This document shows, piece after piece, positions 1,778 to 54,300 of a stretch of 64,000 nucleotides of DNA (the stretch's first letter is position 1; the number at the start of each line of letters is the position of its first letter). This DNA comes from a virus. The stretch is taken from positions 1-64,000 of the IMG/VR virus record IMGVR_UViG_3300028802_000008; one strand, 5' to 3'. The translations under genes and the position numbers were made by a program. The notes below the pieces were generated by a model. That model did not search any database and was not told the origin of the DNA. It saw nothing but the letters and a program-made list of their open reading frames with translations.

Positions 1778-1953
1778 CGGAAGCGTCGGCTTGCTTCCCG
1801 ACGGGAGCGGGGCTTGCCAAGCGACGGGAGCGGGCGGGATGCGGCTTGGGTAAGCGGCCAGTCGGCGGAGGCGGCTTACAAGCGGAGCGGGAGCGGGCGG
1901 GGCTTGCAAGCGGGAGCGGGGGCGGCTTGGGCTTGCGGAATTTAAGTTAAACT

Positions 1954-2086
1954 GCTTATTTGTGGCGGCTTGGTTGAGCCTGAAATTTTGGGGAACTTAC
2001 GCTTATTTGTGGCGGCTTGGTTGAGCCTGAAATTTTGGGCAGCTTTCGCTTATTTGTGGAAGCTCGGTTGAGCCTGAAAATATTGG
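1954..2086 (+). repeat. Three tandem 47-bp-period copies of GCTTAT-N15-TGAGCCTGAAA
   Basis: GCTTATTTGTGG...GGTTGAGCCTGAAA starting at 1954, 2001 and 2048. Confidence 0.9.
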
Positions 2087-2194
2087 GCTTACAAACACAA
2101 TCCACTACTTGTGGACCGCTTAGGGGGGTCGAACAATTTTGAGCGTTTGGGCCGCTGGGTCGATTACTTGTGCTGGCCGCGATAGACTGGCCGC

Positions 2195-2885
2195 GTAGCG
2201 GTCAGTTCGACCGACCGCCACAAAGTCCCGGAAAGTTGGGACCGCACCTTGACAACCAAAGACCCCGCTGCTGGTGGAACGTCCTAGAGGGATGAACCAC
2301 TACCACCACCTAAGCCCCAGTACTTACTGGCCGTTCGCAAAGCTCAACGGTTTACCCTCGGGTATGACGAAAAGGTATTAGGTGGAGGATGGACCGGCTG
2401 AAAGCTATGGGCTTGAGCATTGCTCGCCTAGTGCTGACAGATTCCCGGTCGGCAGAAAGCATGGCACTTGTGCCCTCTGCTACTGGCGTGACTGCCATAG
2501 GGGGTCTTAGGTGGTGGCACATTGAAAAGTGAAGATATCCGAAAGCACGGAGTAAGTGCAGGCGTTCGTTGACCTATACGGTCGGTGAAATGAGCCCGCG
2601 CTGCCGTAGTAAGTTGACCTAGTGGTGTACCGGGTTAGCGCAACAAGACGACGGAGTGGCTGTCAAAGTCAACCTGAGTCGTAACGTGGAACGAGATCAA
2701 AGTCCGAGGGCTTTGGTGAGGACTGTCCTAGTAACTAGCGCCGATTCCGACCGGTAGAACTAACAATAAGCTACGATCGTAGATGATTAAGTTCCGGGGA
2801 TTAGCTCAATAAAGTAATCGCAAAATCACGAGTAGAGTCCGCACTTACAGATGTGCTTTCGGTTGCCAATGGTGTCTCTTGGTCG
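2195..2885 (+). ncRNA. Candidate large structured ncRNA (about 690 nt), family unassigned
   Basis: No ORF of 60 aa or more in any frame 1910-2844; long-range helices 2303-2314/2506-2517, 2539-2548/2853-2862 and 2552-2559/2841-2848 plus many nested hairpins; possible TAGACT -10 at 2183; ends approximate. Confidence 0.7.
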
Positions 2886-2897
2886 GTTTACGGGACG

Positions 2898-3013
2898 TGG
2901 CAGGGGTCGGGAGAGCGCTCCCGGTCGGGAGGGGATTACCCCTCCCGGTCGGCGCTCTAGTCGGCGCTCGGGAGGGGATTACCCCTCCCGGTCGGCGCTC
3001 CCGACCCCTGCCA
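2898..3013. repeat. Palindromic element: 16-bp terminal inverted repeats enclosing two 33-bp direct repeats
   Basis: TGGCAGGGGTCGGGAG (2898-2913) / CTCCCGACCCCTGCCA (2998-3013); direct repeats 2925-2957 and 2968-3000; 2898-2920 identical to 49-71. Confidence 0.9.
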
Positions 3014-3094
3014 TCCCGAAAGCATCCGAACTTGTATCGGACGCTTTCGGGGTGCGGGAATCCCCCACGCCCACTTTGACCAGGGAGAAACACT

Positions 3095-3430
3095 ATGACT
3101 TACCACACGCCCGATGAGATCGCTGCTTACCTTGGTGAGCCGGTCGACTTCACTCACGACATCGGGTTGATCCACACTTGCGTGCGGATTGTCGGGCGCT
3201 TTGCTCCCGGCGATCCTCAACGCGACGCGGTCCTTGTGAACGACGCTGCCGATTCGATCTTTGACTTTGTCGGAGATTACTTGGCAGAGCCGGTGACGGC
3301 CTACTTCGGACATACACTTGCCGAGTACCGTCCGTCACTTTGGAGCCGGACAAAGCGACGCTTTGTTCGGATCATCCAAAGCCTGGACGGCTTGCTGTTC
3401 TCGCTCCGGTCGCTTGGACCGCAGCGATGA
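3095..3430 (+). CDS. Hypothetical protein, 111 aa
   Basis: AGGGAG RBS and hairpin leader. Confidence 0.75.
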   Translation: MTYHTPDEIAAYLGEPVDFTHDIGLIHTCVRIVGRFAPGDPQRDAVLVNDAADSIFDFVGDYLAEPVTAYFGHTLAEYRPSLWSRTKRRFVRIIQSLDGLLFSLRSLGPQR

Positions 3431-3633: not shown

Positions 3634-3744
3634 CACTTTGGCGGCACCGACTTCGGTCGGTGTCGTCCCATAAGGCAGCGAACTTGTGTCGCTGCCTTAT
3701 GGGGCGAGGGATAAGCCCACGTCCACTTACCAGGGAGACAAACC

Positions 3745-3945
3745 ATGTTGTTCGTTGTCGAAAGCAACGATCCAGTCCCTTTCATCTTCATGGTGGAAGC
3801 GGAAACGCACAACGATGCTGCTCAAGTGGCAAACGCTTTCCTGCTCTCAAAGGGCTTGATTGACGTGAACTTCAGCACCATCACCTTGGCTGAACTTACT
3901 GCGGAAGTGGTAAGGGAAGCCCAGGATATCTTGACAAGCCACTGA
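3745..3945 (+). CDS. Hypothetical protein, 66 aa
   Basis: AGGGAG RBS and hairpin leader. Confidence 0.7.
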   Translation: MLFVVESNDPVPFIFMVEAETHNDAAQVANAFLLSKGLIDVNFSTITLAELTAEVVREAQDILTSH

Positions 3946-6397: not shown

Positions 6398-8734
6398 ATG
6401 CAAATCACACAGGACAAGTTCGACCAAGGTCGACGTGCTCTGGAGCGCTTCACCAAGCTGATCCAAGTCCGATACAAGCCGCTCTTGCGAGCGGTGACGG
6501 GCAACGAGAAGCTGGACGTGAAGCCTCACTCATCACAAGCGGTGACAGACGGAAAAACCGTCTGGCTCCCGGTCCCCTTGGCGCTTGGAGACGAGACACT
6601 GGAACACGACAAGTCCTTGTGTGGACTGCGTGACTTGGCAGACATGAAAATGCTTTGCCCGATGTGCGAAGTCGAAGATGGGATAGACGCAATGGTCTTC
6701 CACGAATCGGCCCATATCACGGAGAAGTCCTTTGAGAAGCTAAACGGACGGACGTTCCTCAAGATCGTCCAGCCGATAGTCGAGCCTTACCTTGATCAAC
6801 TCCCGCTGGACAAGCGAGACAAGATCGAGCGTGAGATTCGTCAAGAGACCGCTCCGATGATCGCATCGAGCAAGCTGGACCCTTGGCTGCCGTTCGCGTT
6901 GAACATCATCGAAGACATCTACGTCAACCGTCGCTTGTATAAGTACCGGGAGGGTGTGGAAGTTGCGATGAAGCTCACGTCCCGCAAGACATTCGAGAAC
7001 GGAATCGAAGATCTCAATTCCGAAAGCAACCACCTGTGGAAAGACAATGATCCCACCGCGCAAGCGTTGATCAGTGCCTACCTTGCAGGCCAGGGGCTTG
7101 AGGACTTGGGATCTTGTCTGCATCCCGATCACGACCTCACAAACGATCCGGAAGTGTTGGCGATTGTCGGGAAGATTCCCGGCCATTGTGCGATCCAAGA
7201 TCGCGTGGAGTTGGCGATGAAGTTGATGATGCACTTGCGGTCCTTGGGCTATTGCCCGACCAAAAGCACATCTCCTCTTCCTCCTCCTCCTCCTCCGACC
7301 GAGCCGCAAGGCGAAACCGAGCCGCAGCCACCGCAAGGTGAAAGCGAACCGGAGCCGGGTAAGGGTGAGAGTGGTGACCAGGAAGGTGAAGCCGAAGAGG
7401 ATGACGAAGCCGAGAGCAATCACGGCGAAGAGTCAAACGACGAAGCTGATCCTTCCGGGAACCCGGAAGCGTCGGAGTCCGAAGATGAAGGCGACGAAGA
7501 GGAAGATGGAAGCGAAAGCTCCGAGTCTGACTCTATAAGTGAAAGCTCCGTCGAGCCTGAAAATGAGGACGAAGACGAAATGACGGGCAAGGGACGCGGA
7601 CATTCGGAAGAGACCGAAGAGTCTGACGACGACGAAGGCGAAAGCGAAGATGGTCAAGTTGAGGGTCAAATCGGGGAAGAGCCCGTCGAGCCTGAAAATG
7701 AGACCGGAAGCACTGAGCCAACGGAAGAGTCGACTTGGGAGCCTCCGACGGACGATGAGGTTGACGAAGCGCTAAACAGAGCGCGGAAGATGTTGGAAGA
7801 GATCATGGGCCACGATGAATACGGTCCAAGCAACTCCAACTCAAGTCAGGATGGAGACGTGATCAAGCAGGTGATCGAGCAGGCTGGCTTCGACCATCCT
7901 TCCGAAAGCCTGCGTGGCGGCGTCGATCTTCAAACGAAGAACGACTACCCGTACAACGATCCCAACTTGTATGCACCGGAAATCAAGGTGCCCAAGCACA
8001 TGCTGACTCCTCCGCTCTCTCGCTTGCGTGTCGTGTTCTCCTCCAACAAGAAGACCGGAATTGAAAGGTCGCTCAAGTCTGGCACTCGCCTTGACACGAT
8101 GCACTTGTATCGTGCCGGGACGGATGACAAGCGAATCTTTGGAAAGCGCAACGTCCCCAAGAACCGTGACTGGTTCGTGCTTATCGGGTTGGACTTCTCC
8201 GGAAGTACCGATGCAAACGGGGCCGACGCTGCCCACAAGATGGCGGGCCACGCGGTCGGCGAACTTCTCTATCAGCTTGACATCAAGTTCGAGATGTACG
8301 CCCACACAAGTGGAACGAAGCGTGACCAGGATGGCAATACTCAACTCGCTTTGGAGCATGTGCTCATCAAGGGCGTGGATGAGAATTGGAGAGACAAGAG
8401 CGTTCAAAGGATGCTCTTCTCTCAACGCGGTCGTGGCTGCAACTTAGACGGCCACTCGTTGGAACAGTATCGCAAGCGTATCGAAGCTCAACGAGCGACG
8501 GACAAACTCCTCCTCTACTTCACGGACGGCGCAATGCCTGCCTTGAACGCGCATGAGGAACTTCCCATCCTCAAAGAGAACATCGAGATCTTGCGTCGAA
8601 GCCGAACTACCTTGATCGGCGTCGGCTACCGGACGGATTCCCCCAAGCAGCATGGCTTGGACACAATCGAAATCAATGGTCCGGAAGATATTGCTTCCAT
8701 CGTCAAGGGCTTGGAGGATCGTCTCCTGCGCTAA
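6398..8734 (+). CDS. CobT-like vWA protein with HExxH motif and acidic linker
   Basis: FHESAH, NIIEDIYVN, long D/E-rich linker, MIDAS DFSGS and FTDG. Confidence 0.85.
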   Translation: MQITQDKFDQGRRALERFTKLIQVRYKPLLRAVTGNEKLDVKPHSSQAVTDGKTVWLPVPLALGDETLEHDKSLCGLRDLADMKMLCPMCEVEDGIDAMVFHESAHITEKSFEKLNGRTFLKIVQPIVEPYLDQLPLDKRDKIEREIRQETAPMIASSKLDPWLPFALNIIEDIYVNRRLYKYREGVEVAMKLTSRKTFENGIEDLNSESNHLWKDNDPTAQALISAYLAGQGLEDLGSCLHPDHDLTNDPEVLAIVGKIPGHCAIQDRVELAMKLMMHLRSLGYCPTKSTSPLPPPPPPTEPQGETEPQPPQGESEPEPGKGESGDQEGEAEEDDEAESNHGEESNDEADPSGNPEASESEDEGDEEEDGSESSESDSISESSVEPENEDEDEMTGKGRGHSEETEESDDDEGESEDGQVEGQIGEEPVEPENETGSTEPTEESTWEPPTDDEVDEALNRARKMLEEIMGHDEYGPSNSNSSQDGDVIKQVIEQAGFDHPSESLRGGVDLQTKNDYPYNDPNLYAPEIKVPKHMLTPPLSRLRVVFSSNKKTGIERSLKSGTRLDTMHLYRAGTDDKRIFGKRNVPKNRDWFVLIGLDFSGSTDANGADAAHKMAGHAVGELLYQLDIKFEMYAHTSGTKRDQDGNTQLALEHVLIKGVDENWRDKSVQRMLFSQRGRGCNLDGHSLEQYRKRIEAQRATDKLLLYFTDGAMPALNAHEELPILKENIEILRRSRTTLIGVGYRTDSPKQHGLDTIEINGPEDIASIVKGLEDRLLR

Positions 8735-8855
8735 GGGAGGCGACACTCGATCACCGAAAGGTGGTCGAGTGTCCCTCAAGCCAGACAATCTTCACGGATT
8801 GCCTGGCTTGAGGGTCACTCGACCCAAACCGACAATCAAGAGAAACGAGACAATC

Positions 8856-9985: not shown

Positions 9986-10095
9986 ACATTGCGGATCGGG
10001 GAAAAACCCATAAGGCGCGACGCTGTCGAGCCTGGGTTTTTCCCCCTTCCGGAGTATCCAAGCTCCACACCGACAATCAACCAAGGAGACAAACC

Positions 10096-10941
10096 ATGAG
10101 CACCAACTTCATTGCGGACGCCCCAGAACCTTCGCGTTCGACGGGCACAATCACCCTTTCTTGGGGATTGCTGAACATTCCGCTTTCGATCTATACCGGA
10201 ACGGAAGAGACGAATGTCAGCCGCAAAGAGTTTGTAGACGGCGACGTTGAAAGGCCCGCGGGTCGAGCAGTGATTGACAAGATCTCGCAAGAGATCATCG
10301 ACTCTTCCCGCGTGGTTCGGATGGCTGAGGCAAGCAACGGAACGTTCGTCGTCCTTACGGATGATGAGCAGGCTGCTTGCACAGGCGTTCGGAACGTTGC
10401 CGAAGTTGTGACTTTCATCGACAACCGTGACATCTTCAACTACATGCCGAACAAGCTGATGCAGGTACGGCCGAAGCGAGACAAGGGAATTCCGAATCCT
10501 GCTGGGGCCAAGGCGTTCTCGCTTCTCATCTCTGCGATGGCAAGCCAGAGCGTCACGGCGCTGGTCAAGGTCGCACTTCGCGGCCCTGCTCAGTACGCGC
10601 TTCTAACGGCGACGGGCGATCTCTTGTTCGTCCATTCGTCCGACGGAGTACGCAAGCCACTTGCGATGGGCTTGACGGCAGTGACTCCTCAAGAGCAGGA
10701 TATGGCAAGGAACTTGATCAGTGCCATCGGCATTGCCCAAGCTCCCCATATTCCAGACGTGACGGCGCAAGCGATCGGACAGTACGTCGATCAGAAGGCA
10801 GGCGGAAACACGCCAGCCATGCAAGCAGCGCCGCCCGCGACCAACGGGACGGACTTGATGGATGAACTGATGAAGTCAATCGAAGCCAAGAAGAACGCTC
10901 CCAAGTGGGGCGCTCCGAGTGGGCTTCCGGTAAACGTATGA
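10096..10941 (+). CDS. ku: Ku-like DNA end-binding protein
   Basis: N-terminal RSTGTITLSWGLLNIPLSIY and C-terminal DLMDELMKSI resemble prokaryotic Ku; AAGGAG RBS. Confidence 0.8.
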   Translation: MSTNFIADAPEPSRSTGTITLSWGLLNIPLSIYTGTEETNVSRKEFVDGDVERPAGRAVIDKISQEIIDSSRVVRMAEASNGTFVVLTDDEQAACTGVRNVAEVVTFIDNRDIFNYMPNKLMQVRPKRDKGIPNPAGAKAFSLLISAMASQSVTALVKVALRGPAQYALLTATGDLLFVHSSDGVRKPLAMGLTAVTPQEQDMARNLISAIGIAQAPHIPDVTAQAIGQYVDQKAGGNTPAMQAAPPATNGTDLMDELMKSIEAKKNAPKWGAPSGLPVNV

Positions 10942-11216: not shown

Positions 11217-11311
11217 GTAGGACGTAGCGCGAAGGCTGGAAGGGTGCGATCCTTCCAGCCCCGCACGGTACATCCTAAGTACCATCCGACAATCAAACAG
11301 GGAGATACACC

Positions 11312-11512
11312 ATGAGCAAGCGAATCACGGTTTCGCGTGATATCGAGACGACGACCAAAGAGGTCGTCACCATCGAAGTCCCGGACGACTTCCCCTTCCT
11401 GGGGAATCCGTACTTGGACGAAGAGTTCGATCCCTTCAACTACAAGGTGATCGAGGAGCGCGAACAGATCGAAGAGACTCACGAGTGGGGCTCTTGGGAG
11501 ATCGCGTCATGA
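11312..11512 (+). CDS. Acidic hypothetical protein, 66 aa
   Basis: AGGGAG RBS and hairpin leader. Confidence 0.7.
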   Translation: MSKRITVSRDIETTTKEVVTIEVPDDFPFLGNPYLDEEFDPFNYKVIEEREQIEETHEWGSWEIAS

Positions 11513-11742
11513 CTAGCTTGGAACTGACCCGAGGCAAGCTCGACAAGAGTATCCCGCACGCTTATCTGTTCCTTCCGCTCGTGCAGGAAGGCACGGGCAA
11601 GGAGGGACTGATCACGCCAAGAGCACCATTGACAGTCATCGTTGGCCCCCGAAGCGCGACACGCAAGTCGCAACTCAAGGAGGTCGCCTTCGGCAGCATT
11701 GACGAAATCCTGGAAGCGGGATGGAGGTTTGACGAAGCATGA
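11509..11742 (+). CDS. Hypothetical protein, 77 aa
   Basis: ATGA overlap. Confidence 0.65.
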   Translation: MTSLELTRGKLDKSIPHAYLFLPLVQEGTGKEGLITPRAPLTVIVGPRSATRKSQLKEVAFGSIDEILEAGWRFDEA

Positions 11743-11834
11743 TCTGGGGGTACTTGGGTGCCGTTGGCTTCATCATGTTTGTGGGCATCGTCTGCTTCAT
11801 GATCGGCTACGAAATGGGACGACGCCATTGGTAA
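11739..11834 (+). CDS. Small membrane peptide, 31 aa
   Basis: ATGA overlap; one hydrophobic helix. Confidence 0.45.
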   Translation: MIWGYLGAVGFIMFVGIVCFMIGYEMGRRHW

Positions 11835-11840
11835 GCGGAT

Positions 11841-11878
11841 AAGCCCGCCCTCCTTCGGGAAGGCGGGCTTTCGCTTTG
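11841..11878 (+). terminator. Intrinsic terminator closing the early block
   Basis: AAGCCCGCC...GGCGGGCTT followed by TCGCTTTG. Confidence 0.75.
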
Positions 11879-30983: not shown

Positions 30984-31298
30984 TCAGAATGCAGCAGGGT
31001 GGACGCGTACGTCGATCCAGGCCAACTGATCCTCAGGCCACGTCTTGCCGTCGATGTGAAGCTTCAAGTCGTAACGTCCCTCGGTTCGGTTGCTCAACCA
31101 AGATTGAAGTGGAACCGTCACAATCTTGTCATCTGCGTTGAGCACCGAACCGGGGAGACCTACCACGGTCGAATCTTCTCCCGAGAGGTCAGCCGTGATC
31201 ACGGCTCCCGGAAGCAACAAAGCGAGTCCTGACAATTGGATGGCGATGCTATCGCTGTCGCCCTTGTATCGGACCCAGGACACTGGCATGGCGGTCAT
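30984..31298 (-). CDS. Small beta-rich virion-associated protein
   Basis: ATGA-coupled to the giant gene; YKGD...EGRYDL..TWP. Confidence 0.6.
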   Translation of the reverse strand: MTAMPVSWVRYKGDSDSIAIQLSGLALLLPGAVITADLSGEDSTVVGLPGSVLNADDKIVTVPLQSWLSNRTEGRYDLKLHIDGKTWPEDQLAWIDVRVHPAAF

Positions 31299-34200
31299 GG
31301 CACGAGAATACCTTTCTCCGATGTAGCAGGTCTGATTACAGTTCGCTTGTCCTTGCGTTCCATCTCGCGCTCCTCATCGATCCGGATACAGGCGCGCAGA
31401 GCATCCAGCCGTCGCATCTCCAGCTTGTAGCCACTGAGGATGGTGTGCCCGAAGAGGCACAGGGCAGCAGCCGCCATCGTGTCGCGCCCGTCGACCGCAC
31501 CAAACCCGCCAGCGGAGTTCCCTGGAGGGGAGTGCAGCCCGACCGCAGCAAAGGTGTCCCGACCTTCCCCCACAAGGACGGTAGAGGAGAAGGTCGGGAC
31601 AACATGGACGACGGCAGCGGCCATCGTGTCGGAGCCGTCAGTAAGTTCCAGAGTGCTCTCGTGGAGCGGAGGAGTACCTACACCAACAGCAACAAGCGTG
31701 TCTGGCTTGTCGGCGAGAACCAGTGTGCTTGAATGAACCGGAGGAACAGTGACGGCTTCCGCAACGAGGTCGTCACGCCCATCCGGAACAGCCAACGTGC
31801 CGGTGAGGGTCGGAGGCGTCGTGGAGGCCGTCGCCACCATCGTGTCGAGGCCGTCCGTGATCCCCAGGACGCCAGCACCGACCGCACCGGCCACCACATT
31901 GGCCACCAGCGTGTCCAAACCGTCCGAGAGGTCTACGGAGGCCGTGTGCAGTGGTACGACAGCGGATACGGACGCTGAGAGGGTGTCGCGGCCGTCCGTG
32001 AACACCACGGTGGACGTGGCGAGCGGAACAGCAGCCGTGGCAGTCGCATCGAGGTTGTCTGCGCCGTCGATGAACCCCAAGGTGCTCGTGAAGATCGGGA
32101 TCTCGCTCTGCGCCGACCCCACCATCGTGTCGCGGTTGTCGCCCCCCGACATCGTGCTGAGAAGCATCGGGACGACGGTGTCGGCAAAGGCACGCATCGT
32201 GTCTTGGCCGTCGGGGAGAACGAAGATCAGAACATTGACGGCAAGGAAGTCGGGTGTGGCTTCCAGGGTGTCTACGCCGTCGGAGACGACCAAAGCTGCC
32301 GAGATCGTCGGGATGGTGCGGGTGGCCGCAGCCACCATCGTGTCCAGACCGTCCGAGACGGTGAACGCGGCAGCGGAGTTGCCCGGAGCAGCACTTGTTC
32401 CGACAGCACCGATCTGATCCGGTGCTTCGGTGATGACCAAGGATGACGTGAAGGTGGGAACGACAGTGGAGGCCGTCGCCACCATCGTGTCCGGAGCCTC
32501 GGTGATGACGAGGGCGCTGACCAATGTCGGGACATCAGCCGTGGCTTGCGCCACCATCGTGTCCGTGCGATCGGTGAGAACGATCGACGCATCGTTGATC
32601 GGGATGACTTGGAGGACAGCGACGAGAGTGTCCCGGCCATCGGTGACGACCAGCGCACCGGAGAACGTCGGGATGGCCGCTGTGGCGGTCGCTACAAGTG
32701 TGTCTTCGCCGTCAGTGACGGTGATCGCCCCTGCCGAATCTCCCGGAGGCGCGTGGTTCGCCGTGGCGACCATGTCGTCCACGCCGTCGGTGAGAACCAG
32801 AGTCGAATCGAAGGTCGGGATGAATGCCGAAGCCGAAGCGACAAGGGTGTCCCGGCTGTCGGTGGCAGCAGCAGTACCCAGCAGGGTCGGCGGCTCCGTG
32901 TCGACGGAAGTCGCAAGCGTGTCGATGCGGTCGACAACGACCAAGGTTCCCGTGAGCGTCGGGGGAGTCGTCGTGACGACGACGGCAAGAGTGTCCGGAT
33001 TGTCCGACACCGAGAGGGTCGATGCCTGCTCAGGTGGTGCCGCCGTTGGGACGCTTGTAAGCGTGTCAGCGTTGTCGGTGAGCGCCAGAGTCGACGTGTA
33101 CGTCGGAGCAGTGGTGGAGACCGTGAGCGCAAGAGTGTCGAGACCGTCGAAGAGGGAGAGGAAGGCGTTGAGACCGGGAGGCGTGGAGACTCCGGTCGAG
33201 GCGATCGTGTCCGCAGCTTCGGTGTAGAGCAGGGACGTGACATTCGGCGGGGGAAGCGATTCGGACGCAGCGACAAGAGTGTCTCGGTTGTCGGTCTGGG
33301 CGAAGGTCGACAGGTGCGTCGGAACGACCGTCTCGGCCGGTGCAACGAGGGTGTCGACGCGGTCGGAGATGGAAAGTGTGCTTGTGAATGTCGGAACTGT
33401 GGCGTCTACCGTCGTGACGATCGCGTCGAGGCCGTCAGTGCGTGCAAGCGAAGATGTCTGGAACTCTCCAGCGGTCGCTGCCGCCACCAGCGTGTCTGGC
33501 TGATCGGTGAGAGCCAGAGTGCCGGTGAAGATGGGTGCGGTCGTGGTTCCCGCAGCCGTGATCGTGTCGATGTTGTCGGTGAGGACCAGAGTGCCGGTGT
33601 GAATCGGAACAGTGGATGAACCCGAAGCGACCAACGTGTCTGGGTTGTCGGTTGCGGAAGCTAAACCTATGAAGATTGGAACCGTTCTGTCACCGGAAGC
33701 AACGAGCGTGTCCGCTCCGTCGGTGAGGGCGAGCGTGCCGGTGTACGTCGGAGCCGTCGTGGAGGGTGTCGCCACCAGCGCGTCGGCTCCGTCGGTGAGA
33801 TCCAACGTTGCCGTCTGGACGGTCCCGGCCGTTGCCGTCGCCACCATCGTGTCGACGCCGTCGGTGACGGTGATGATGGCTGCACCGAAGGTTCCGGCCG
33901 TTGCGGTCGCGACCAGGGTGTCCTGGCCGTCAGTGACGACGACATTCTCCGAAGTGAAGACTGGAACGGTTCGGCTGGCAGCAGCCACCATCGTGTCGAG
34001 GCCGTCGGTCGCTACCAGAGCACCCGTAGTGATGCCGAGGGCTTCGACCGAAGCCTCAAGTGTGTCTACGCCGTCGGTGCGAGCGACAGTCGAGTCAAAG
34101 GTGGGTACGGTCGTGGAACCCGTAGCCGCAAGCTCATCCGGGTCATCGGTTGCCGACAGAGTGGACTGGAACAGTTGCTGAGCGTTGACCGACGCTGCCA

Positions 34201-37200
34201 AGGTGTCTCGACCGTCGACCAGGATGAGGTCAGTCTCATAAGTACCTGGCTCCTCAGCCGAGACCGAAGCACCGATGACATCAAGCCGATCTGAGACATC
34301 CAGGGTTGCGGTGCGAACAGCGGTGAACGTGACACCGGAAGTGAGGGTGTCCGCTCCGTCGGTGAGCGCCAAGGTTCCCGTGAAGACCGGTACCTGCGTG
34401 TCAACGGTTGGCGCAAGCGTGTCTCGACCATCGGTCGTCGCGATGATCCCCCGATAGACATCCACCCTTGACGCCAACGTGTCCCGACCATCGGTCGGAG
34501 CCATCGATCCTGACGACGACCCCGCAGCCCCAAGCGATACGATGAGTTGAGGGATGACACCTTGAGTGACGGTCGGCGCGCCAGCCTCGGCTACGGGGAC
34601 AACCCTGAAGGCGAACGAATCACTGTCCTCAAGCCCAAGGAAGTTGGTCTGGATCGAGAACACCAACTCCGTGTAGTTGTTCCCCGACCACCCGACATCG
34701 TCTGCTCGTCCATCCTCGGTGACTCGGCCTGCTACGAAGGTTCCGGTACCGGCTGACAGTCGAGCCGTGGTGGCGTTCTGATCCGTCAGGTTCACAGAAT
34801 CGGTGTAAGCAATGATCCCGGCATTCGGGACCGGCGCGTACAGGACCGGTGGGAACGAATCGTATTCAAGCTGCCAATCAGTCGTACTTGGGATAGGCAA
34901 GTCGTTCGTGGACTGAAGCTGCACACGAAGTTGCAAGTTCTGCACGACATCACTGATCGCCGCAGCCGAGTTCTCGGCCGCAGCCGCAGCCGAACTGGTC
35001 TCCGTGCCGTCGAAGTAGAATCTGTACTTGGAAACAGTGACGGCGGGGACGTACTCGGTGACGACTTGCGGAAGCTGAATCCAGGTATCGCCGGTCGTGT
35101 TCGCGACTGGTCCGTTGTAGACCAGAGAGGCAGTACGCCCTGATGATAGCGGGCTGATGTCTTCGTCGTCTATGAATACTCGCAAGCGAAGTCGCTTGCC
35201 CGTCGCTACGGCTGTAGTCGCGCCAGCCAACCATCCCTTGATGGCCGTCTCAGCAGTTGGAAGCCTTCCGTTTTGTTGGTTGACCCAGTTCCCACCCGGA
35301 GCAGGCGTATTCACAATGCTGCCAGCACCCCAGATCACAGCCCCTGAACCGTCAGCGTTGCAGATCGCCAATTCCGCCCGACACGAAGCCGTACCGGAAG
35401 TGGACTGGAATATCCGGAGGTTGAGTCCAACCAACCCATCCAAGGTGAAAGCATTCAATGTCTTGGAATACCACTCCAGCGGATTCGCACCCGGCGTAGA
35501 TGTCCATTGGATTGCTGGGGTCCACCCTAGAACTGTGTTGACTTGAGCCGTAGCGGAGATCGGTCCACGATCGGTCCACATCTCCTTCTCATTCATGGGG
35601 CCGTCGCGGAGAACTTCAACCCAAACCTGAGCAACCGTCAGGCTGGTGTAGTTGTTCAGACCGAAGGTGGTTGAACCTCCTGCGACACCTTGCCAGTCGA
35701 TGATGTTCTGGCCGAAAGCTGTGCCATCACCCGCAGCACGACGTGCAGTCACCGTGCCGGAAGCCGCCAGGGGGGTCTTTCCATTCGGGTTAAGTGAGTT
35801 GAAGTCTGCACAGAAGTAGAGGAGCGTCGAGTTCCTTTGCAATATCGCGGTCTGGGATGCCTCTGTTCGGGAGTTCCCACCATTCGCCTCACCGATCGCG
35901 CCAGGTACGACCCAGGCGCACAAACCGGAAGCCGAATTTCCCGAAAGGATGGTGAAGTTCGCTGAGATGGTCTGGTTGGTCTGAGACGATGCCGCCACGG
36001 CCACCCATATCCACGCAGAGCACTCAGTCGTGCCACCAGTCGATGCAGCAGCATTAACCTGCTGGAACAACAAGTTGGCATTCGTCGGAACACTGAACCC
36101 TTGCGAGTTGATGGAAGATTCTGTTCCACCAGCGACGTAGATCCGGTCACCGGCATTCCAACTGACACCCGTGATCGTTCGCTGCGTTCCGGTGGGGTAG
36201 CCGGTGAACCACGTCGCCGACTCGTAGAACGCAAGATTGGCGGGAGCAGCGGGTGTTCCCGTATCGATACTCGCGGTGTCCTTGAGATACAACTTGGACC
36301 CGTTCGGTTCCGTTTTTTGAACGGCGAAGGGTTGAGCGAACTTGACATAAGCTTCACTGGCTGCTCCTGCCGCACCACCGATAGCAGTAGTCGCCGTACC
36401 CGAAGCCATGTTCTGACCTGCCGGGGCGTCATCGAAGAAAATGCGTGCCCGAAGTCGATCACCCTTCAGAAGGTTGGTCGAGGTTGCGGTCGCGGTGAAG
36501 TTCATCTTGGTTGAAGTACCGGTAGATGGAACAACGTTGGTCGATCTGAAGATCTCAGAGACAATGTTGCCCTGAGAATCCATCCTGTCCACGACGCAGT
36601 TGACAGCGGAGTTGGCTGCGCCAGCAGTACCCATCTGCCAAAGTTGAAGATCAACATTGCCCGAGATCGTCACATTGCGATCGATCGGCAGAGTGATCCA
36701 ATGATGTATCTGTTGGGTGGCGAAATCAACTTCGATACCGGGAATCGGTCCTGGGACCGTAGCGACATTGGGCGACGAAACAACCCCTAACGGAGCGTCA
36801 CCCCAGAGCCAGGTCAGATGAGGAAGAAGCGTGCCTCTCAAGATGAAAGCGCGATCTCCCCTGTTGATACCGGGGTGTGGCCCGGTGTCAGCAAACCAGA
36901 ACTGAGCGACGATCGGTGTCGCTTCAGCGGTGAACGACCACGAGTGGTTGAAGGCGGCTGTGCCTTCCGACATCTCTGCTTCGCCAGTAGAACCGGTGGC
37001 GCTGATCGCCCACTGGTGATTGAGGAATGCCTGTCCGACAGGGTTCCTCTTGCCGACCGCGGTGAGGCCGCTCGACCAGTTGAATGCCGCGGTGCCTTCA
37101 CTTCCGTTCTCACCGGTCGCCGTGAGATTCCAATTGTGACTGAAGGAAGCGGTACCTTGCTTGACGCCCGCAACGGGTGCCACGCCTGTGGCGGTCATCG

Positions 37201-40200
37201 TCCAGTTGTGATTGAACGACGCGGTTCCCTGCTGATCCCGGACAACGTCAATCGTCGGCGTGACGCCGTAAGTCAGTCCTGTCGTCGCTCCGTTGCGGAG
37301 GACACGGAAGCGGATGGTGTCGCCGCCAATGAATGCTGGCTTGCTGATCTGCACCGGGTAGACGAGTTCGGTGAAGTTGTTGCCAGGGAAGCCGAAGTCA
37401 TCAACCAAGCCGTCTTCGGACACCCTGCCGGAAGAGAAGGTACCGGTGCCACCGGTCAAACGATTGGTGGTGGCCTGGCCGTCGGTCAGAGACGGGTCGT
37501 TGTAGGGAGCGACCGACGCTGAAGCAACGCGTGTCTGCACTCGGAAGATCAAGTCATTGGCGGAATTCGCAGTCCACGTTCCCGCAGCCACTCGGGTCAT
37601 CTGGTTGCCGCCATGAGCAGGTGACAAATCGGAGCCGTATCCCCAGGCATTAGTACCATCGAAGGCAGCACTTGCTGTGAGCACGATGACGTACCGGGTA
37701 CCATTCACCAAGGTGAACGTCCCATCGAAATCGAAGTATTCCCACTGTCTGGTGGTGGTGAACGTTCCCGCAGTTCGGACGGTAGAGGTCGCTAGGAGCG
37801 TGGCACCAACACTGCTTGTACCGTAGGTACCCGAATGGGAGAACAACTCAGCCTTGATCGTTGAAGTTGGAGCCCCGAGCCGACAGGCCCAAAAACCGGC
37901 CCTCCACAGAGGCTGTCCGTTGCCGGTGAACGATTGGCCTATCGATACTTGGTTGACTGCCGAGATCGATGACGTGACCGACAGATTCGCCTCACCATAA
38001 ACATCGACATCGGCAAAGGTGTACCCGACATCTGCCCACGTCCCGACGCCGTTCTTCTCCCACTGAAGCTGCCAATCGTCGGTGGCGGGAAGCGGTGCTG
38101 CCGTCGTGGATTGCAACCGCACACGCAATTGACCAATCCCGTCACCCGTGTTCAGGTTGCCGAGGATGGAAGTATTCTGGGCACCCAGCGCGACGCTGCC
38201 CGACTCTGTGCCTTGGTCGTAGAACCGGTATGCCGCTTGATTGACCCCGACCGTAGCCGCGACCAAGTTGACGGTCGGGGTTTGACTGTACGTCATTCCC
38301 GTCGTCGCACCGTTCCTCAGGACACGGAAGCGAACGGAGTCACCGCTGACGAATGCCGCCGCATTCATCTGGACCGGGTAGAGCAATTCAGTGAACCCGT
38401 TCGCCGCGAAGCCCACATCGTCAACGAGGCCATCCTCAGACACCTTGCCCGCAGAGAAGGTGCCCGTGCCACCGGTCAAACGATTGGTAGTGGCCTGGCC
38501 GTCGGTCAGAGACGGGTCGTTGTAGGGGATTGTCGGGCCGTCGTAGACCCTGAAGAGCAAATCTTCGTTGATCTGAGTCCACGAAGTATCGAACTGAGAT
38601 CTTCTGCCAAGATGCGAAGAGATAGTGTCAGCGGTTACCAAGAGGCTGTTCGGACTCGTCATGCCACTGGCTTCAACTGCGATGACGTAACCGACACCCT
38701 TGGTCAATGTGAGACTTCCGTCGAAGTCGAACCGCACCCAGGATGCTGTGAGCGAAATCGAACTCGCTAATTTCGCCGTCGAAGTGGCAAGCGCAGTACC
38801 GGTGGCCATTCCGTCGATGCCACCTGTCGTGGTGGCGTAGAGGGTGGCCGTGACATTTCCGGACACAGTCCCTTGTCGTGCCAACCAGAAGTCAGCCCGA
38901 GTCAACTTCGCCCCTGCACCGAGGAATGATTGGCCCTCACGGATATAACCAGCTACCGGGTCACCGAGAATGATCACCTGCGGCGACTGCGGAGTCAAGT
39001 AAGAATCAAGAACTCCAAGATCGAGCCATATCCCGGTTGAGTTCTTCTCGAACTGGAGTTGCCAATCGTCGGTGGCGGGGAGCGGCGCGATATTCGTGGA
39101 CTGAAGCAGCACACGCAACTGACCGAGGCCGTCACCAAGGGTGATGTCGCCAGTGTGCGCGGTGTTCTGTGCAGCGAGGGCAACGCTGGTGTTCTCAGCC
39201 CCCTGATCAAAGAACCGGTACCCCGCTTGAGTCACGGCGGGAAGCGTCCTTGTGACGTTGATCGTCGGGGTAGACGAGTACGTCATCGTGTCACTGATGG
39301 CGTCGTTCCTCAGGATGCGGAAGCGGAGTACATCACCATTGGTGAGGTCGGCCTGTATCAGCTTGACGGTATACAGCAACTCTGTGTAGTTGTTCGCCGA
39401 CCAGCCGACATCATCGGTGAAGCCGTCCTCCGCAACCTTACCCGCAACGAAGGTACCAGTGCCCGCTCCGAGTCGGTTGGTGGTAGCCGCTGCATTGGTG
39501 AGGTATGCTGAGTCATACGCCCTCGCCGTAGTCGTAACGGCATCAACATCTGTCCACGTCCCATTGGCATTCTTCTCCCACTGAAGACACCAATCATCAG
39601 TGGCGGGGACGAGAGTAGTCGTCGTGGACTGCAACCTCATCCGCAGTTGAGTATTGACATCACCTTGTGTGACATCGATCGTGGGAGCCGTGTTCACACC
39701 GGCAAGCGCCGTGCTGCCTGTCTCTGTGCCGTCGTTGTAGAAGCCATACGCAGCCTGTGTGACTGCGACCGGAGTGATGTCCTTGACTTCAACTTGAGCC
39801 GTCGACCACACATCGGAGCGGGAGACCGTCACCGAGACGGTCGCGGCACTGGTCGTCGTGTTCAAGCGATAGGTGCCGTAAGCTGGACGTGTGCCATTGG
39901 CGTCAATGAGTGTGTGGCCGGTCGGTGTCGGGATTACGACATCCGGACGAACACCGTTGGCGAAGCGGAGAACCTGTGAAGTACCGTCAGCGACCTGAAG
40001 CGTCATTGCCGCCCAAGTGATCGACGTGGACGTGGCCCCCTGGTTGGCGCTTATTCCAGGAAGGCACTCCTTCCCGGCCGCGGGTCGGATCGTGGTGGAG
40101 ACGCACCGGGCAGCACCAGTGAACGTCGGCATCGTCCAGACGCCGTCGTACTCACGGTACGACACCATGATCGACGGCGAGACGTTCCTGCTGACGCATG

Positions 40201-40339
40201 TCGTCCAGCCAGCGGGCAGCGTCGCCAGAGTGGCCGTCGTGCCGTAGGCCGCGACCATGACATAGTCGCCGCTTGCTGTGCCCGCGGGCAAGGTGGCTGA
40301 AGTTGTACCCGGTGTCCCGTTGGCTACCCAGGTTGCCAT
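31295..40339 (-). CDS. Giant 3014-aa Thr/Ala-rich modular repeat protein (probable virion fibre or adhesin)
   Basis: GGAGG RBS; four copies of a large module and about 30 D(G/N/R)xDT repeats; late-gene context. Confidence 0.8.
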   Translation of the reverse strand: MATWVANGTPGTTSATLPAGTASGDYVMVAAYGTTATLATLPAGWTTCVSRNVSPSIMVSYREYDGVWTMPTFTGAARCVSTTIRPAAGKECLPGISANQGATSTSITWAAMTLQVADGTSQVLRFANGVRPDVVIPTPTGHTLIDANGTRPAYGTYRLNTTTSAATVSVTVSRSDVWSTAQVEVKDITPVAVTQAAYGFYNDGTETGSTALAGVNTAPTIDVTQGDVNTQLRMRLQSTTTTLVPATDDWCLQWEKNANGTWTDVDAVTTTARAYDSAYLTNAAATTNRLGAGTGTFVAGKVAEDGFTDDVGWSANNYTELLYTVKLIQADLTNGDVLRFRILRNDAISDTMTYSSTPTINVTRTLPAVTQAGYRFFDQGAENTSVALAAQNTAHTGDITLGDGLGQLRVLLQSTNIAPLPATDDWQLQFEKNSTGIWLDLGVLDSYLTPQSPQVIILGDPVAGYIREGQSFLGAGAKLTRADFWLARQGTVSGNVTATLYATTTGGIDGMATGTALATSTAKLASSISLTASWVRFDFDGSLTLTKGVGYVIAVEASGMTSPNSLLVTADTISSHLGRRSQFDTSWTQINEDLLFRVYDGPTIPYNDPSLTDGQATTNRLTGGTGTFSAGKVSEDGLVDDVGFAANGFTELLYPVQMNAAAFVSGDSVRFRVLRNGATTGMTYSQTPTVNLVAATVGVNQAAYRFYDQGTESGSVALGAQNTSILGNLNTGDGIGQLRVRLQSTTAAPLPATDDWQLQWEKNGVGTWADVGYTFADVDVYGEANLSVTSSISAVNQVSIGQSFTGNGQPLWRAGFWACRLGAPTSTIKAELFSHSGTYGTSSVGATLLATSTVRTAGTFTTTRQWEYFDFDGTFTLVNGTRYVIVLTASAAFDGTNAWGYGSDLSPAHGGNQMTRVAAGTWTANSANDLIFRVQTRVASASVAPYNDPSLTDGQATTNRLTGGTGTFSSGRVSEDGLVDDFGFPGNNFTELVYPVQISKPAFIGGDTIRFRVLRNGATTGLTYGVTPTIDVVRDQQGTASFNHNWTMTATGVAPVAGVKQGTASFSHNWNLTATGENGSEGTAAFNWSSGLTAVGKRNPVGQAFLNHQWAISATGSTGEAEMSEGTAAFNHSWSFTAEATPIVAQFWFADTGPHPGINRGDRAFILRGTLLPHLTWLWGDAPLGVVSSPNVATVPGPIPGIEVDFATQQIHHWITLPIDRNVTISGNVDLQLWQMGTAGAANSAVNCVVDRMDSQGNIVSEIFRSTNVVPSTGTSTKMNFTATATSTNLLKGDRLRARIFFDDAPAGQNMASGTATTAIGGAAGAASEAYVKFAQPFAVQKTEPNGSKLYLKDTASIDTGTPAAPANLAFYESATWFTGYPTGTQRTITGVSWNAGDRIYVAGGTESSINSQGFSVPTNANLLFQQVNAAASTGGTTECSAWIWVAVAASSQTNQTISANFTILSGNSASGLCAWVVPGAIGEANGGNSRTEASQTAILQRNSTLLYFCADFNSLNPNGKTPLAASGTVTARRAAGDGTAFGQNIIDWQGVAGGSTTFGLNNYTSLTVAQVWVEVLRDGPMNEKEMWTDRGPISATAQVNTVLGWTPAIQWTSTPGANPLEWYSKTLNAFTLDGLVGLNLRIFQSTSGTASCRAELAICNADGSGAVIWGAGSIVNTPAPGGNWVNQQNGRLPTAETAIKGWLAGATTAVATGKRLRLRVFIDDEDISPLSSGRTASLVYNGPVANTTGDTWIQLPQVVTEYVPAVTVSKYRFYFDGTETSSAAAAAENSAAAISDVVQNLQLRVQLQSTNDLPIPSTTDWQLEYDSFPPVLYAPVPNAGIIAYTDSVNLTDQNATTARLSAGTGTFVAGRVTEDGRADDVGWSGNNYTELVFSIQTNFLGLEDSDSFAFRVVPVAEAGAPTVTQGVIPQLIVSLGAAGSSSGSMAPTDGRDTLASRVDVYRGIIATTDGRDTLAPTVDTQVPVFTGTLALTDGADTLTSGVTFTAVRTATLDVSDRLDVIGASVSAEEPGTYETDLILVDGRDTLAASVNAQQLFQSTLSATDDPDELAATGSTTVPTFDSTVARTDGVDTLEASVEALGITTGALVATDGLDTMVAAASRTVPVFTSENVVVTDGQDTLVATATAGTFGAAIITVTDGVDTMVATATAGTVQTATLDLTDGADALVATPSTTAPTYTGTLALTDGADTLVASGDRTVPIFIGLASATDNPDTLVASGSSTVPIHTGTLVLTDNIDTITAAGTTTAPIFTGTLALTDQPDTLVAAATAGEFQTSSLARTDGLDAIVTTVDATVPTFTSTLSISDRVDTLVAPAETVVPTHLSTFAQTDNRDTLVAASESLPPPNVTSLLYTEAADTIASTGVSTPPGLNAFLSLFDGLDTLALTVSTTAPTYTSTLALTDNADTLTSVPTAAPPEQASTLSVSDNPDTLAVVVTTTPPTLTGTLVVVDRIDTLATSVDTEPPTLLGTAAATDSRDTLVASASAFIPTFDSTLVLTDGVDDMVATANHAPPGDSAGAITVTDGEDTLVATATAAIPTFSGALVVTDGRDTLVAVLQVIPINDASIVLTDRTDTMVAQATADVPTLVSALVITEAPDTMVATASTVVPTFTSSLVITEAPDQIGAVGTSAAPGNSAAAFTVSDGLDTMVAAATRTIPTISAALVVSDGVDTLEATPDFLAVNVLIFVLPDGQDTMRAFADTVVPMLLSTMSGGDNRDTMVGSAQSEIPIFTSTLGFIDGADNLDATATAAVPLATSTVVFTDGRDTLSASVSAVVPLHTASVDLSDGLDTLVANVVAGAVGAGVLGITDGLDTMVATASTTPPTLTGTLAVPDGRDDLVAEAVTVPPVHSSTLVLADKPDTLVAVGVGTPPLHESTLELTDGSDTMAAAVVHVVPTFSSTVLVGEGRDTFAAVGLHSPPGNSAGGFGAVDGRDTMAAAALCLFGHTILSGYKLEMRRLDALRACIRIDEEREMERKDKRTVIRPATSEKGILVP

Positions 40340-51348: not shown

Positions 51349-54300
51349 CTCACTTGTCCCAGAGACTTGAGGTTGGTAATGAATCGATCAGCATCATGCG
51401 GATCTGTGATGTTCGGGAAGGACAGATCACCATAGAAGTTGAGCGTAACGTTCTCGCCACTCTCTGATTTGCCGTGCAGTGGCGTCACTTGAATAGCTTC
51501 ATCATGCAATCCTTCGCCCACCCTCAGGAGGGTTCCTCCATTGGTGCGAGGAACAACCAGTCCGCCGCGAGCAAGGGCGGCATGGACGTGGTTGATGTGC
51601 TCACGCATGAGAGCAGGAGAGAAGCTGTGATCCGCTCCCCGGAAGACGTTCGTCGCCCCCGGTCCACCGTAAATCAGTTCCTTCAATTGAGGCTTGAAGG
51701 CGCGGTAGATGGCATGGTTGATATCCAACAAGTCATGAGGACTGTAGTTGATCATGCCCGACGGCCCCGAAAGGTCGATGGCTCGATCCTTGCCGTGCCA
51801 AGAAGGCTGACCAGTGTTTCGGGTGATAGCTCCGGGGCGGTAGGTGCTCAGAATCTTGTACGGAATTCCCAACGCCTGAAGGACTGGAGGAATGGCCCTC
51901 CACGAACCTGCCCCCGCCTCCACCTGAGGAGGCAATCGCTTGCTTGCTTCCTCATTCCAAGCATTGTCTGCTCCCGTGATCCAGTCATTGACTGCATTCA
52001 GTACGCCTTGTCCTGAATCCTTGAGGAACTTATTGGGAATGCGATTGACAGCTTGCTGAGCAAGCCAGTGAGCAGGATTCCAGAGAGTCTCAATAGCTTT
52101 GTCCTTGAGGAATCCTGTCACCTTGCCGATACCGCTCTTCGCTGCATTGAACCCATTTTTGACGATGTCGCCGATGCCAAAGAGGTCCATGTTGGAATAA
52201 CCCTGCTCATCTTCACCGAACACATGTCCGAGTTCGGAGTAGAGGCCGCGAGCACGCTGACGATACTTGGGATCGGTCGGGATGACGAACTCGGGGAAGA
52301 TGTTCGATCCTTCGCCCACCAGAGCGCGCATTCCGGCAACGGCACCACCCTCTTCGCCAACCACACCACCCTTGGCGAACCGCGGTACGGCTCCACCCGA
52401 GCCGCCGCCGCCGCCATTCACTGCTGCATCGGATTCTCCCGTATCGAAGTTCCATTTGAGGGCATTCAGGCTGACTGGGTCCATATGGCTGACTTTGTGG
52501 CCAATGCCCAACAGGGACGCCACAGCATTCACCGCATCGGCAACCAAGTTGAACGCACCGATGAATCCGTTGATACCGCCAGCGATCGTGTCCAGAATTC
52601 CGTTCCAAACCCCAGAGATAAGCGATCCGATCGCCTCCATGATCGGCTTGATGACACTGTTGTAGAGCCATCTCAGCGCAGCCTGAACAGGAGTCAATAT
52701 CTCCTGGAATCCAGCGAAGATTCCTCTGATCGCGTCGTAACCAATTTGAACGATCGACGTGATCGCATTCATCACCGGCTGCATGACGTTGTCCCTCAGC
52801 CAGTTCATAGCGGGGGTGATCAAGTTGTCAACAACCCACCTGACCTGATCTCCAAACCATCTGAAGGCTGGCACCACAAGCGTATCGATGATGTAGTCGA
52901 TGGCAGTGAAGATCTCTTCCATGACAGCCCACATCCCCTGGATGGCTTTCCAGACGATGTCGGCAACGTCAACAACCCTGTCACGAAACCAATCAAATGC
53001 CTTGACAACGACGTTCCTGATTATCCAGTCCAGGATGTCGAAGACATCTGTGATGAAATCCACCATGATCCCGATGGCAGTGGAAATCCATCCCGCGACA
53101 TCGTCAATGTGGTCCCATACCAATCCGAAGACATCGATGAGAAGGTGGAGATAGTCCACCCAGAGATCGAAGTATTCCTGAATGATCCACCAAGCCGCCT
53201 GGATGATCTTCCAAATAAGTGTGAACACGATCTCCACAGTGACGAAGATCAACTGCAAGATCGGAATGATGTACCCATCGATGTAGCCCCAGAGAGTCTG
53301 GAAGATCGGGTAAATGATATTCCAAGCTGCCATGATGGCTCCGGAGATCGCTCCCCAGACCGTCGCAAAGACATCGACCAATCCTCCCACTACGGAAGCA
53401 ATGGCACCGAATACCGGCATGATCACGCTGTTCCAAATGGTGCTGAGAACTCCTCCGACGCCCCGGAAGAAACCGATGACCGCTCCCACTACGCCGCGGA
53501 AGAAGCCCCAGATGGCCGAACCCAGATCAGTGAAGAAGTCCCATATCGACGTAGAGAAATCGACAGTAGACCCACCCAGAGAAGCGAAGAAGTCAGCTAC
53601 CGGCTGAACAAGATTATCCATCAACCATTGACCGATGCCCAGGAGCACATCGTACATCGGCTTCAAGATGTGGTCATAAGTCCACTTCGCTACGGGGCCA
53701 GCGACGTAGGCGATCGCCGCGCCGAGGGCTGCGGCGATCAGAGGACCGAATGGACCGAACACAAGGATGAGCACTGCCGCCAAAGCACCGATCAACAACT
53801 GTGGCCAATGCTGCTTCATCCAGTCAGGAATAGACTTGAAGACTTCAATAGCCTTATCTTTCCACCCCTTGAGCTTGTCGATGCTGTCTCCGAATGCGGC
53901 GAAGATATCGAAGTCGCCCATTTTCTTCATTGCTTCATCGATCTCAGTTTCCAACTCCTTGTTGAAAGCCTCGATGTCAAACAGATCACCCTCGCGACCG
54001 AGAGTCGAATCTCCACCAGCAACGTCGAAGTCGACTCCTTCACCGGCAGCAAAGAGACTTTCCTCATCACCCTTCTTGGTCTTTTCGATGTTGGCCGCGG
54101 TCTCAGCCATCGAGATGTAGTCCGCCATCTCGGATTCCATCTCAGAGATCAAGTCTTTGATGTCTCGATACGCATCTTCAAGTTGATCCAACTTGGTCTG
54201 CTCAATATCAAGCTGGTCACCCACCAACTCCTGCGCCGCAGCAGCTTCCTTGGCGACCGCCTGTGCTTCTTTCTGCTTCTGCACCAATCCGTCGTATTGT

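Follow-up and report, generated by a model that had tools for sequence, protein, structure and literature searches.

A probable two-domain structured RNA at the head of the early genes in a clade of soil actinophages

The window analysed here is the first 64 kb of the 77.3-kb IMG/VR virus record IMGVR_UViG_3300028802_000008. Its genes fall into two blocks of opposite orientation (Table 1). The + strand block is made up of non-structural genes, and all early genes are on that strand; the minus-strand block, which holds the structural genes, goes on through the remaining 13 kb of the record. A minus-strand ORF that runs off window position 1 (1-289) resumes in frame at record positions 76934-77319, with 1 + 2 leftover bases at the two ends. 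Since the frame is kept across both ends, the record is probably a permuted circle, that is, a closed genome, and it follows that the segment 1666-3094 would be a control region from which the two gene blocks diverge, one leftward and one rightward. On the minus strand, a single 3014-aa ORF (31295-40339) separates the early block from the lysis and tail genes. The end of the first early transcription unit is marked, at 11741-11876, by a 31-codon ORF that encodes a hydrophobic peptide and, after it, a canonical hairpin and T-run terminator. ARAGORN found no tRNA and no tmRNA in the 64 kb. Searches of the 77-kb record for a reverse transcriptase, the mark of a retron- or DGR-type ncRNA, gave no RVT_1 match.

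The early genes are headed by a 0.9-kb stretch, 1910-2844, in which there is no ORF of 60 aa or more, just as a sequence-only reading of the window had reported. This is the sole gap of at least 400 nt lacking 70-aa ORFs across the whole 64-kb window. The same reading had proposed that a multi-domain structured ncRNA lies here, at the head of the early block. That proposal has held up, and its detailed fold, namely the closure of the first domain, several small hairpins and a pseudoknot, has not.

The flanks of the gap have features of their own. Upstream are two arrays of direct repeats which may form an operator array; their sequence is not conserved among the homologues described below. The sequence-only reading put a -10 element at the hexamer TAGACT. 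Each of the six homologues has a TANNNT at a distance of 35-75 nt before motif 1 (TAGACT, TAACGT, TAGTGT, TAGAGT, TAGGGT and TAGAAT), and this hexamer might be the -10 of an early promoter; this is a weak indication, because TANNNT is common by chance. A scan for consensus sigma-70 promoters called none, and no terminator was called. At the -35 place for TAGACT there is a half-site-like sequence, ATTACTTGTG (2163-2172), which is conserved in L003. Downstream, two long G+C-rich hairpins separate the RNA core from the first ribosome-binding site. L003 has hairpins of other sequence and length at the same place. No T-run follows the hairpins in the window.

Table 1. Coordinates of features in the window
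Feature	Position	Strand	Remarks
+ strand block	~3.1-30 kb	+	MoxR-type AAA ATPase, vWA/CobT-like, DUF6011, Ku
+ strand block, further genes		+	tyrosine-recombinase-like (integrase-like), exonuclease, SNF2 helicase, beta clamp, methylases
Structural block	64 to 41 kb	-	head protease, major head, tail, lysis proteins
G+C-rich repeats	1788-1929		several units of 21-23 nt
Tandem repeats	1954-2094		three units of 47 bp
Candidate -10 hexamer TAGACT	2183-2188	+	TANNNT in all six homologues
Two 5' hairpins ahead of core	2195-2242	+	from MFE fold
Motif 1 (CCTTGACAAC..AAGAC)	2247-2263	+	conserved in all six; 3' half is the P1 5' strand
Domain 1	2255-2512	+	closed by P1, 2255-2266/2501-2512
Motif 2 (GCACATTGAAAAG..AAGAT)	2516-2536	+	repeat of motif 1, starts domain 2; aligned in all six
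Domain 2	2539-2862	+	stacked helices P2 (2539-2549/2852-2862) and P2b (2552-2561/2839-2848)
Long-range helix inside domain 2	2605-2616/2764-2775	+	two compensatory pairs in L003, the same two in X2
Unpaired 12-mer ATGATTAAGTTC	2783-2794	+	identical in window, L003, L010, L011; unpaired in consensus fold
Near-invariant 3' 16-mer GCCAATGGTGTCTCTT	2865-2880	+	shared by all six; one copy in window
Two long G+C-rich hairpins	2898-3054	+	inverted repeats; between RNA core and first ribosome-binding site
Ribosome-binding site and ATG of first early ORF (3095-3430)	3081-3097	+	

The neighbouring ATPase has relatives, among them P0003-P0013 (60-75% identical), and a metagenome scan yielded 14 loci. Syntenic non-coding homologues are present in five other distinct soil-metagenome phage sequences, with a sixth locus being an identical copy (L012 = L011). 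All lie upstream of the same MoxR-ATPase/vWA early cassette. The six distinct full-length sequences, the window, L003, L006, L010, L011 and L013, were grouped in three subfamilies: A, the window and L003; B, L010, L006 and L013; and C, L011 (with its copy L012). The closest homologue, L003, aligns to window positions 2223-2911 at 72% identity. Subfamilies B and C share only short motifs with the window, at the same syntenic place. L004 provides a 3' fragment only, and two further soil sequencing runs contain partial close relatives, as DNA contigs; no RNA run was among the sequencing runs listed for this sequence. The first downstream ORF differs between the window and L003 and L006. Therefore, the RNA goes with the head of the operon and not with one particular gene, which argues against a gene-specific, riboswitch-like leader.

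Wider searches added no further homologue. A blastn search with 1900-3100 against 50,697 phage records gave no match. Scanning IMG/VR with the ATPase and with its alignment returned one relative only, 30% identical and lacking the motifs, and the GTDB genome contigs contained no ATPase relative, no motif match and no visible prophage copy. The 14 IMG/VR matches to the 16-nt 3' motif were rejected: all are in low-G+C contigs that lack the ATPase, and by a rough estimate their number is about that expected by chance. The nearest cultured relatives are 74-77-kb phages of Gordonia, Tsukamurella and Rhodococcus, in which the ATPase is ~30% identical and is encoded in the leftward right arm; two of these cultured phages with the ATPase/CobT cassette were examined and have none of the RNA's motifs. 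The RNA family has so far been seen in a narrow clade of high-G+C soil actinophages.

The sequences suggest that the region specifies a two-domain structured + strand RNA, which would probably be ~650-700 nt long and extend from 2195 to 2890 of the window, with a conserved core at 2241-2887. Its predicted build is as follows. One or two 5' hairpins would precede two multi-branched domains, closed by P1 and P2, each coming after a copy of a UUGAMAA..AAGAY motif, and a single-stranded 16-mer would end the molecule. The second of the 5' hairpins in the window, 2225-2242, is conserved in L003; in that position the remaining homologues carry 5' hairpins unlike it. Motif 2 matches motif 1 at ~17 of 21 positions (counted by eye in the window), and each UUGAMAA..AAGAY motif leads into a long helix closing a multi-branched domain. 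By our own counts from the motif positions, domain 1 ranges from ~115 to 260 nt and domain 2 from ~320 to 420 nt across the homologues; domain sizes thus vary widely, and only the frame and the motifs are common to the subfamilies.

The conserved motifs lie largely at the domain boundaries. At up to 3 mismatches, motif 1 has a single copy in the window, and its 10-nt core has 13 matches genome-wide against 19.8 expected. With no enrichment, motif 1 was rejected as a dispersed operator; it was also rejected as a promoter -35, since no -10 stands at the right distance (16-19 nt) in any homologue. The 12-mer ATGATTAAGTTC is absent from L006 and L013, and the helices flanking it are tentative across subfamilies, energy-only assignment having given ambiguous partners. 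At the 3' end, ATGGTGTCTCT is identical in all six full-length sequences and has one mismatch in the L004 fragment. No conserved pairing partner that would explain the invariance of the 3' motif was found. Two candidate pairings were set aside. An end-joining helix, P0 (2241-2252/2877-2887), may form and shows no cognate specificity (-14.7 vs -14.3); pairing between motif 2 and the 3' motif (2516-2528/2863-2876) is possible in the window, L003 and L010 and, judged by eye, not in L006 or L013.

Across the three subfamilies, the helices that close the domains stay in place as their sequence changes. Subfamilies A, B and C each have a P2 sequence of their own (CCGAAAGCAC, AGAUCACGAC and CCGAACGUAA, respectively), and in each P2 pairs with its own 3' partner just ahead of the 3' motif. 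The cognate duplexes have an energy of -21.4 kcal/mol vs -11.0 ± 2.8 for cross-subfamily pairs. P2b contains one compensatory pair. Closure of domain 2 by two stacked helices, CCGAAAGCAC (2539-2548) with GTGCTTTCGG (2853-2862) and GTAAGTGC (2552-2559) with GCACTTAC (2841-2848), had been read from the window alone, and the homologues bear it out. P1 behaves as P2 does but more weakly (-16.2 for cognate pairs vs -13.1 across subfamilies), because its AAGA/UCUU end is conserved. It has a compensatory C-G to U-A change in L003, and its equivalents are GAUCCU/AGGAUC in L010 and GAAGAUUC/GAAUCUUC in L011. The hairpins inside domain 1 contribute 15 compensatory pairs.

Domain 1 had been given another closure in the sequence-only reading, a perfect 12-bp helix formed by CCACCACCTAAG (2303-2314) and CTTAGGTGGTGG (2506-2517). 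The complement is there, a repeat search reporting it as a 16-nt, 94% inverted repeat, and by our own arithmetic a perfect 12-bp long-range complement is expected only ~0.015 times per 700 nt. However, L003 has mismatches at 3 of the 12 positions, and P1 closes the domain instead. The segment 2300-2310 pairs locally with 2381-2392, with one compensatory pair. The other helices quoted in that reading are all present in the window, and they fared unequally in the comparison. The homologues agree with CCAGT/ACTGG, CCGTT/AACGG, TACC/GGTA, GGCA/TGCC and TGGC/GCCA, as well as with GACCGG/CCGGTC, which is GACTAG/CTAGTC in L003 through two compensatory pairs; for the 3' arm of the last, RNAalifold prefers another partner, and two conformations are possible. 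In contrast, the CTACG/CGTAG hairpin is contradicted by the covariation of 2771 with 2609 and not with 2782, and GAACT/AGTTC, GATTA/TAATC and the GTTGAC/GTCAAC pseudoknot are all broken in L003. CAAAGTC/GGCTTTG is in a variable region, outside the homologue comparison.

A further feature of domain 1 is CCUAAG at 2309-2314, one strand of the classical 11-nt GAAA-tetraloop receptor, which is kept in the window and L003. It faces an internal loop that reads AUUA in the window; the L003 loop is GGAU, which makes GAUGG with the next helix. CCUAAG and the internal loop may constitute a tertiary-contact module.

The consensus fold of the window and L003 (RNAalifold, + strand) contains 184 pairs in 31 helices, with 100% of cells paired; 31 of the pairs show compensatory double changes. 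When the 3' partners are slid by 1-3 columns, 0-5 compensatory pairs are left, and 0 of 500 shuffles reach the covariation observed for this structure. Column-shuffled alignments, when refolded, give 13.9 ± 2.6 compensatory pairs, and their consensus energy is -103.9 ± 6.6, compared with -191.9 kcal/mol for the real + strand alignment. Most of these covariation statistics derive from one pair of sequences at 72% identity, and the structure tested was obtained from that same alignment; the soil contig X2, left out of the fold derivation, serves as an independent check. X2 has compensatory changes in the long-range helix of domain 2 (2609 G>C with 2771 C>G; 2615 T>C with 2765 A>G) and in another predicted helix (2648 A>G with 2679 T>C; 2649 C>A with 2678 G>T). 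Four more changes are one-sided and keep pairing. Two changes, at 2504 and 2508, fall in the 3' arm of P1, the comparison with X2 covering that arm only. Three changes break the predicted hairpin 2657-2661/2667-2671, beside indels where the alignment is unreliable. Covariation among homologues, a prediction that went with the proposed RNA, was thus found both between the window and L003 and in two helices of X2. The subfamily B alignment alone folds at -124 vs -51 ± 6 in shuffles. Almost nothing was recovered by RNAalifold from MAFFT alignments of the six sequences because these align poorly.

The + strand, which had been favoured on the grounds of G-U pairs and GAAA loops, is also the strand preferred by the consensus. 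The minus-strand consensus has a higher energy, -143.3 kcal/mol, and 155 pairs, and 41 G-U cells of the + fold become A-C mismatches on the minus strand. The single sequence folds better than its shuffled controls on either strand, with MFE z-scores of -2.5 (+) and -4.1 (-) from 20 shuffles each; since the + strand is G-rich, its shuffles fold well too, and the z-score cannot choose the strand.

These observations bear on the reading in which the region acts as DNA, a central control, packaging or origin region whose inverted repeats are protein sites or cruciforms. The setting would suit such an element: the region is intergenic, lies beside repeat arrays, and has the structural block running leftward from it and the early block rightward. 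In addition, motif 1 resembles a -35 hexamer. Motif 1 also agrees at 10/13 positions with TTGACAGCCACC, which we take to be the reverse complement of the L5 repressor operator and which occurs twice, at +80 and +206, in the L5 leader (L034, L5 51140-51672, minus strand); this is probably a coincidence of the TTGACA core. However, pairing in the helices is maintained even where their sequence has been replaced completely, and it includes G-U states, which the opposite strand would show as mismatches; ~30 helices are nested, and motif 1 is neither dispersed nor provided with a -10 partner. We consider a DNA-level element highly improbable.

Coding readings were rejected as well. A + ORF starting from an ATG in a conserved motif changes frame between the window and L003 (79-nt indel), and the minus-strand mini-ORFs of subfamilies A and B, 5 to 21 codons long, lack conservation. 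At the mini-ORF site, the minus strand of L011 is open over a longer frame, which we take to be spurious.

Might the 3' motif act in translational control, as an anti-ribosome-binding site that pairs with early starts (GGGAGA..ACACYATG) in cis or in trans? The early-gene initiation regions share GAGAMMCACYATG, with 4 matches (3085-3097, 3735-3747, 10086-10098 and 11302-11314) vs 0.47 expected, several of which are preceded by CCGACA. Moreover, 7 of 8 early starts pair with the motif in the best 8% of windows, and three in the best 0.6%. L006 also has a 12-nt near-copy of the 3' motif whose reverse complement (AAGGAGACACCATTG) is the Shine-Dalgarno sequence and start of a small + ORF. Against this, pairing with Shine-Dalgarno sequences is to be expected of any motif rich in pyrimidines, the full motif finds its best partners in the genome away from start sites, and the ACACC of the first gene is not kept in subfamilies B and C while the motif is invariant. 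Such control is quite improbable as the role of the motif. In L006, a second exact copy of the 3' motif lies in reverse orientation after the last gene of the early operon and before a terminator-like hairpin (motif copies at 8728-8745 and 8337-8355, minus strand). There, the leader motif could pair with the 3' terminus of the mRNA made from its own operon, an arrangement not seen in the window or L011.

Comparison with described families was made with all 4227 models of Rfam 15, at E up to 10 in the window and up to 1 in L003, L006, L010, L011 and L013. No match was found in 2195-2885 nor in the RNA regions of the five homologous loci. The only weak matches, to microRNA-like or sRNA-like hairpins, are at 2861-3193, outside the core. 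The covariance models of ROOL, GOLLD, group I and II introns, RNase P, tmRNA, OLE, HEARO and 6S gave no match, so that membership in these families is not indicated. Of the two placements offered earlier, a new class is probable, no described family having been matched, and a divergent ROOL or GOLLD member is unsupported, for lack of any Rfam 15 match. Like ROOL and GOLLD, the predicted RNA is large (500-800 nt), multi-branched and phage-borne, with covarying helices. In contrast to them, it has no adjacent tRNA genes, stands at an operon head, and belongs to a narrow clade of high-G+C soil phages.

A free-standing, trans-acting 'ornate' RNA, like ROOL and GOLLD in kind and not in family, would do work that has nothing to do with its own operon: it might build an RNA-only assembly, act as a decoy for a host protein or a defence system, or be a ribozyme. 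With ~30 helices, long-range closures and conservation mainly in junction strands, the RNA resembles globular RNAs more than leaders, and it is phage-borne, as ROOL and GOLLD often are. Expression of the right-end RNA of phage L5 harms the host, and such toxicity suggests a trans effect (PMC5712189). Nevertheless, there is no similarity to an Rfam family and no T-run terminator between the RNA and the first ORF, and the RNA, seen in one narrow phage clade only, is always at the operon head in the same orientation. A trans role is thus unlikely.

L5 and its relatives provide the nearest parallel in genome position. Phages L5, D29 and StarStuff make an abundant, stable ncRNA of ~500 nt from the early promoter Pleft at the right genome end; it is the first and most abundant early transcript of L5, and ~90% of it is terminated before the first gene (PMC5712189). 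The region studied here is likewise an ORF-free stretch of at least ~500 nt in an actinobacteriophage, following an inferred early promoter, preceding the first early gene, and adjoining operator-like repeats. Unlike this region, the L5 RNA lacks the three conserved motifs, and direct comparison of the L5 Pleft RNA (51,140-51,672) with it by blastn and nhmmer gave matches of at most 12 nt, so homology is not indicated. We know of no published conserved fold or function for the L5 RNA.

Another actinophage precedent is the non-coding 'ori' RNA found beside parABS in extrachromosomal cluster A prophages of the Alma/LadyBird type (PMC7157519). It resembles the RNA described here in being structured, several hundred nt long and next to repeats, and a replication element, either a primer or origin transcript like ColE1 RNA II or a counterpart of the cluster A RNA, would fit the iteron- or operator-like direct repeats that the RNA adjoins (the three 47-bp units and the 23-nt units of Table 1). 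RNA-based origins are, after all, documented in actinophages (PMC7157519). However, those origin RNAs adjoin parABS and are expressed in the prophage, while the 77-kb record, searched for ParB, has no ParB_N domain; the RNA here is contiguous with the early operon and points into it, unlike the cluster A RNA and ColE1 RNA II, and the sequence of the repeat arrays is not conserved. A replication role is improbable.

Conservation, covariation, preference for the + strand and a place at the head of the rightward non-structural block are features of this region. We favour, with a probability of about 0.6, a non-coding, highly structured + strand RNA of ~650-700 nt that would represent a previously undescribed family and serve as a cis leader or a stable RNA. 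Position, orientation and the absence of a T-run terminator suggest that it is the first part of the early transcript. Host RNA polymerase would make it as the first ~700 nt of that transcript, from a promoter near 2183-2188. The product would then either stay on the early mRNA as its long leader or become a stable RNA through termination or processing at the 2898-3054 hairpins, as in the Pleft RNAs of L5 and D29. It is tempting to propose that the conserved motifs left unpaired at the domain boundaries give the nascent RNA a binding platform. In cis, such a platform may influence the transcribing polymerase or the transcript itself, securing early expression through read-through of the hairpin-rich early region or through stabilisation. 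A cis-acting platform on the nascent early transcript is, in our estimate, the most likely single mechanism, even so a doubtful one that holds a minor share of the total weight.

Two cis-acting antitermination RNAs of early leaders, put of HK022 and nut of lambda, are comparable: they too lie between an early promoter and a hairpin-rich early operon, and the cis action on polymerase proposed here would be like theirs. The put and nut elements consist of one or two stem-loops of tens of nucleotides. The RNA here is far larger and has no known sequence or structural likeness to them, and the mechanism is in this case inferred. Several findings count against our favoured reading: 650 nt and ~30 helices are far beyond the needs of known cis-antitermination RNAs, the single-sequence z-score is modest and stronger on the minus strand, and consensus promoter and terminator are both uncalled.

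We also make a tentative proposal, which we rate as possible but short of even odds, that large two-domain 'ornate' RNAs of this kind are a class of their own, hitherto undescribed, in which the conserved junction strands form an active core with an RNA-level function at the onset of infection. The core would comprise the two UUGAMAA..AAGAY motifs, the AUGAUUAAGUUC 12-mer and the invariant GCCAAUGGUGUCUCUU. Candidates for its function would be a polymerase-modifying processive antiterminator far above put in size, a ribozyme or processing module, and an RNA-only assembly. In this clade of uncultured soil actinophages, the RNA would be transcribed before anything else.

In bacteria and phages, large ncRNAs that adopt a complex, conserved fold are rare, and the handful of classes studied in depth turned out to be unusual. 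The RNA described here has clear covariation, no Rfam relative, and a place as the first sequence after a likely early promoter. It offers a structural handle on an actinophage question, namely why L5 and D29 begin infection with much ncRNA from the genome end. If functional, the fold and its invariant motifs are directly testable by reporter fusions and structure probing.

A similar arrangement may exist in a cultured phage. The right genome end of Gordonia phage Demosthenes (L031 1-783) has a 709-nt gap lacking 70-aa ORFs upstream of its leftward early genes, and the gap measures 783 nt up to the first annotated gene. It has none of the motifs of the RNA described here and occupies the same position; there may be an analogous RNA there.
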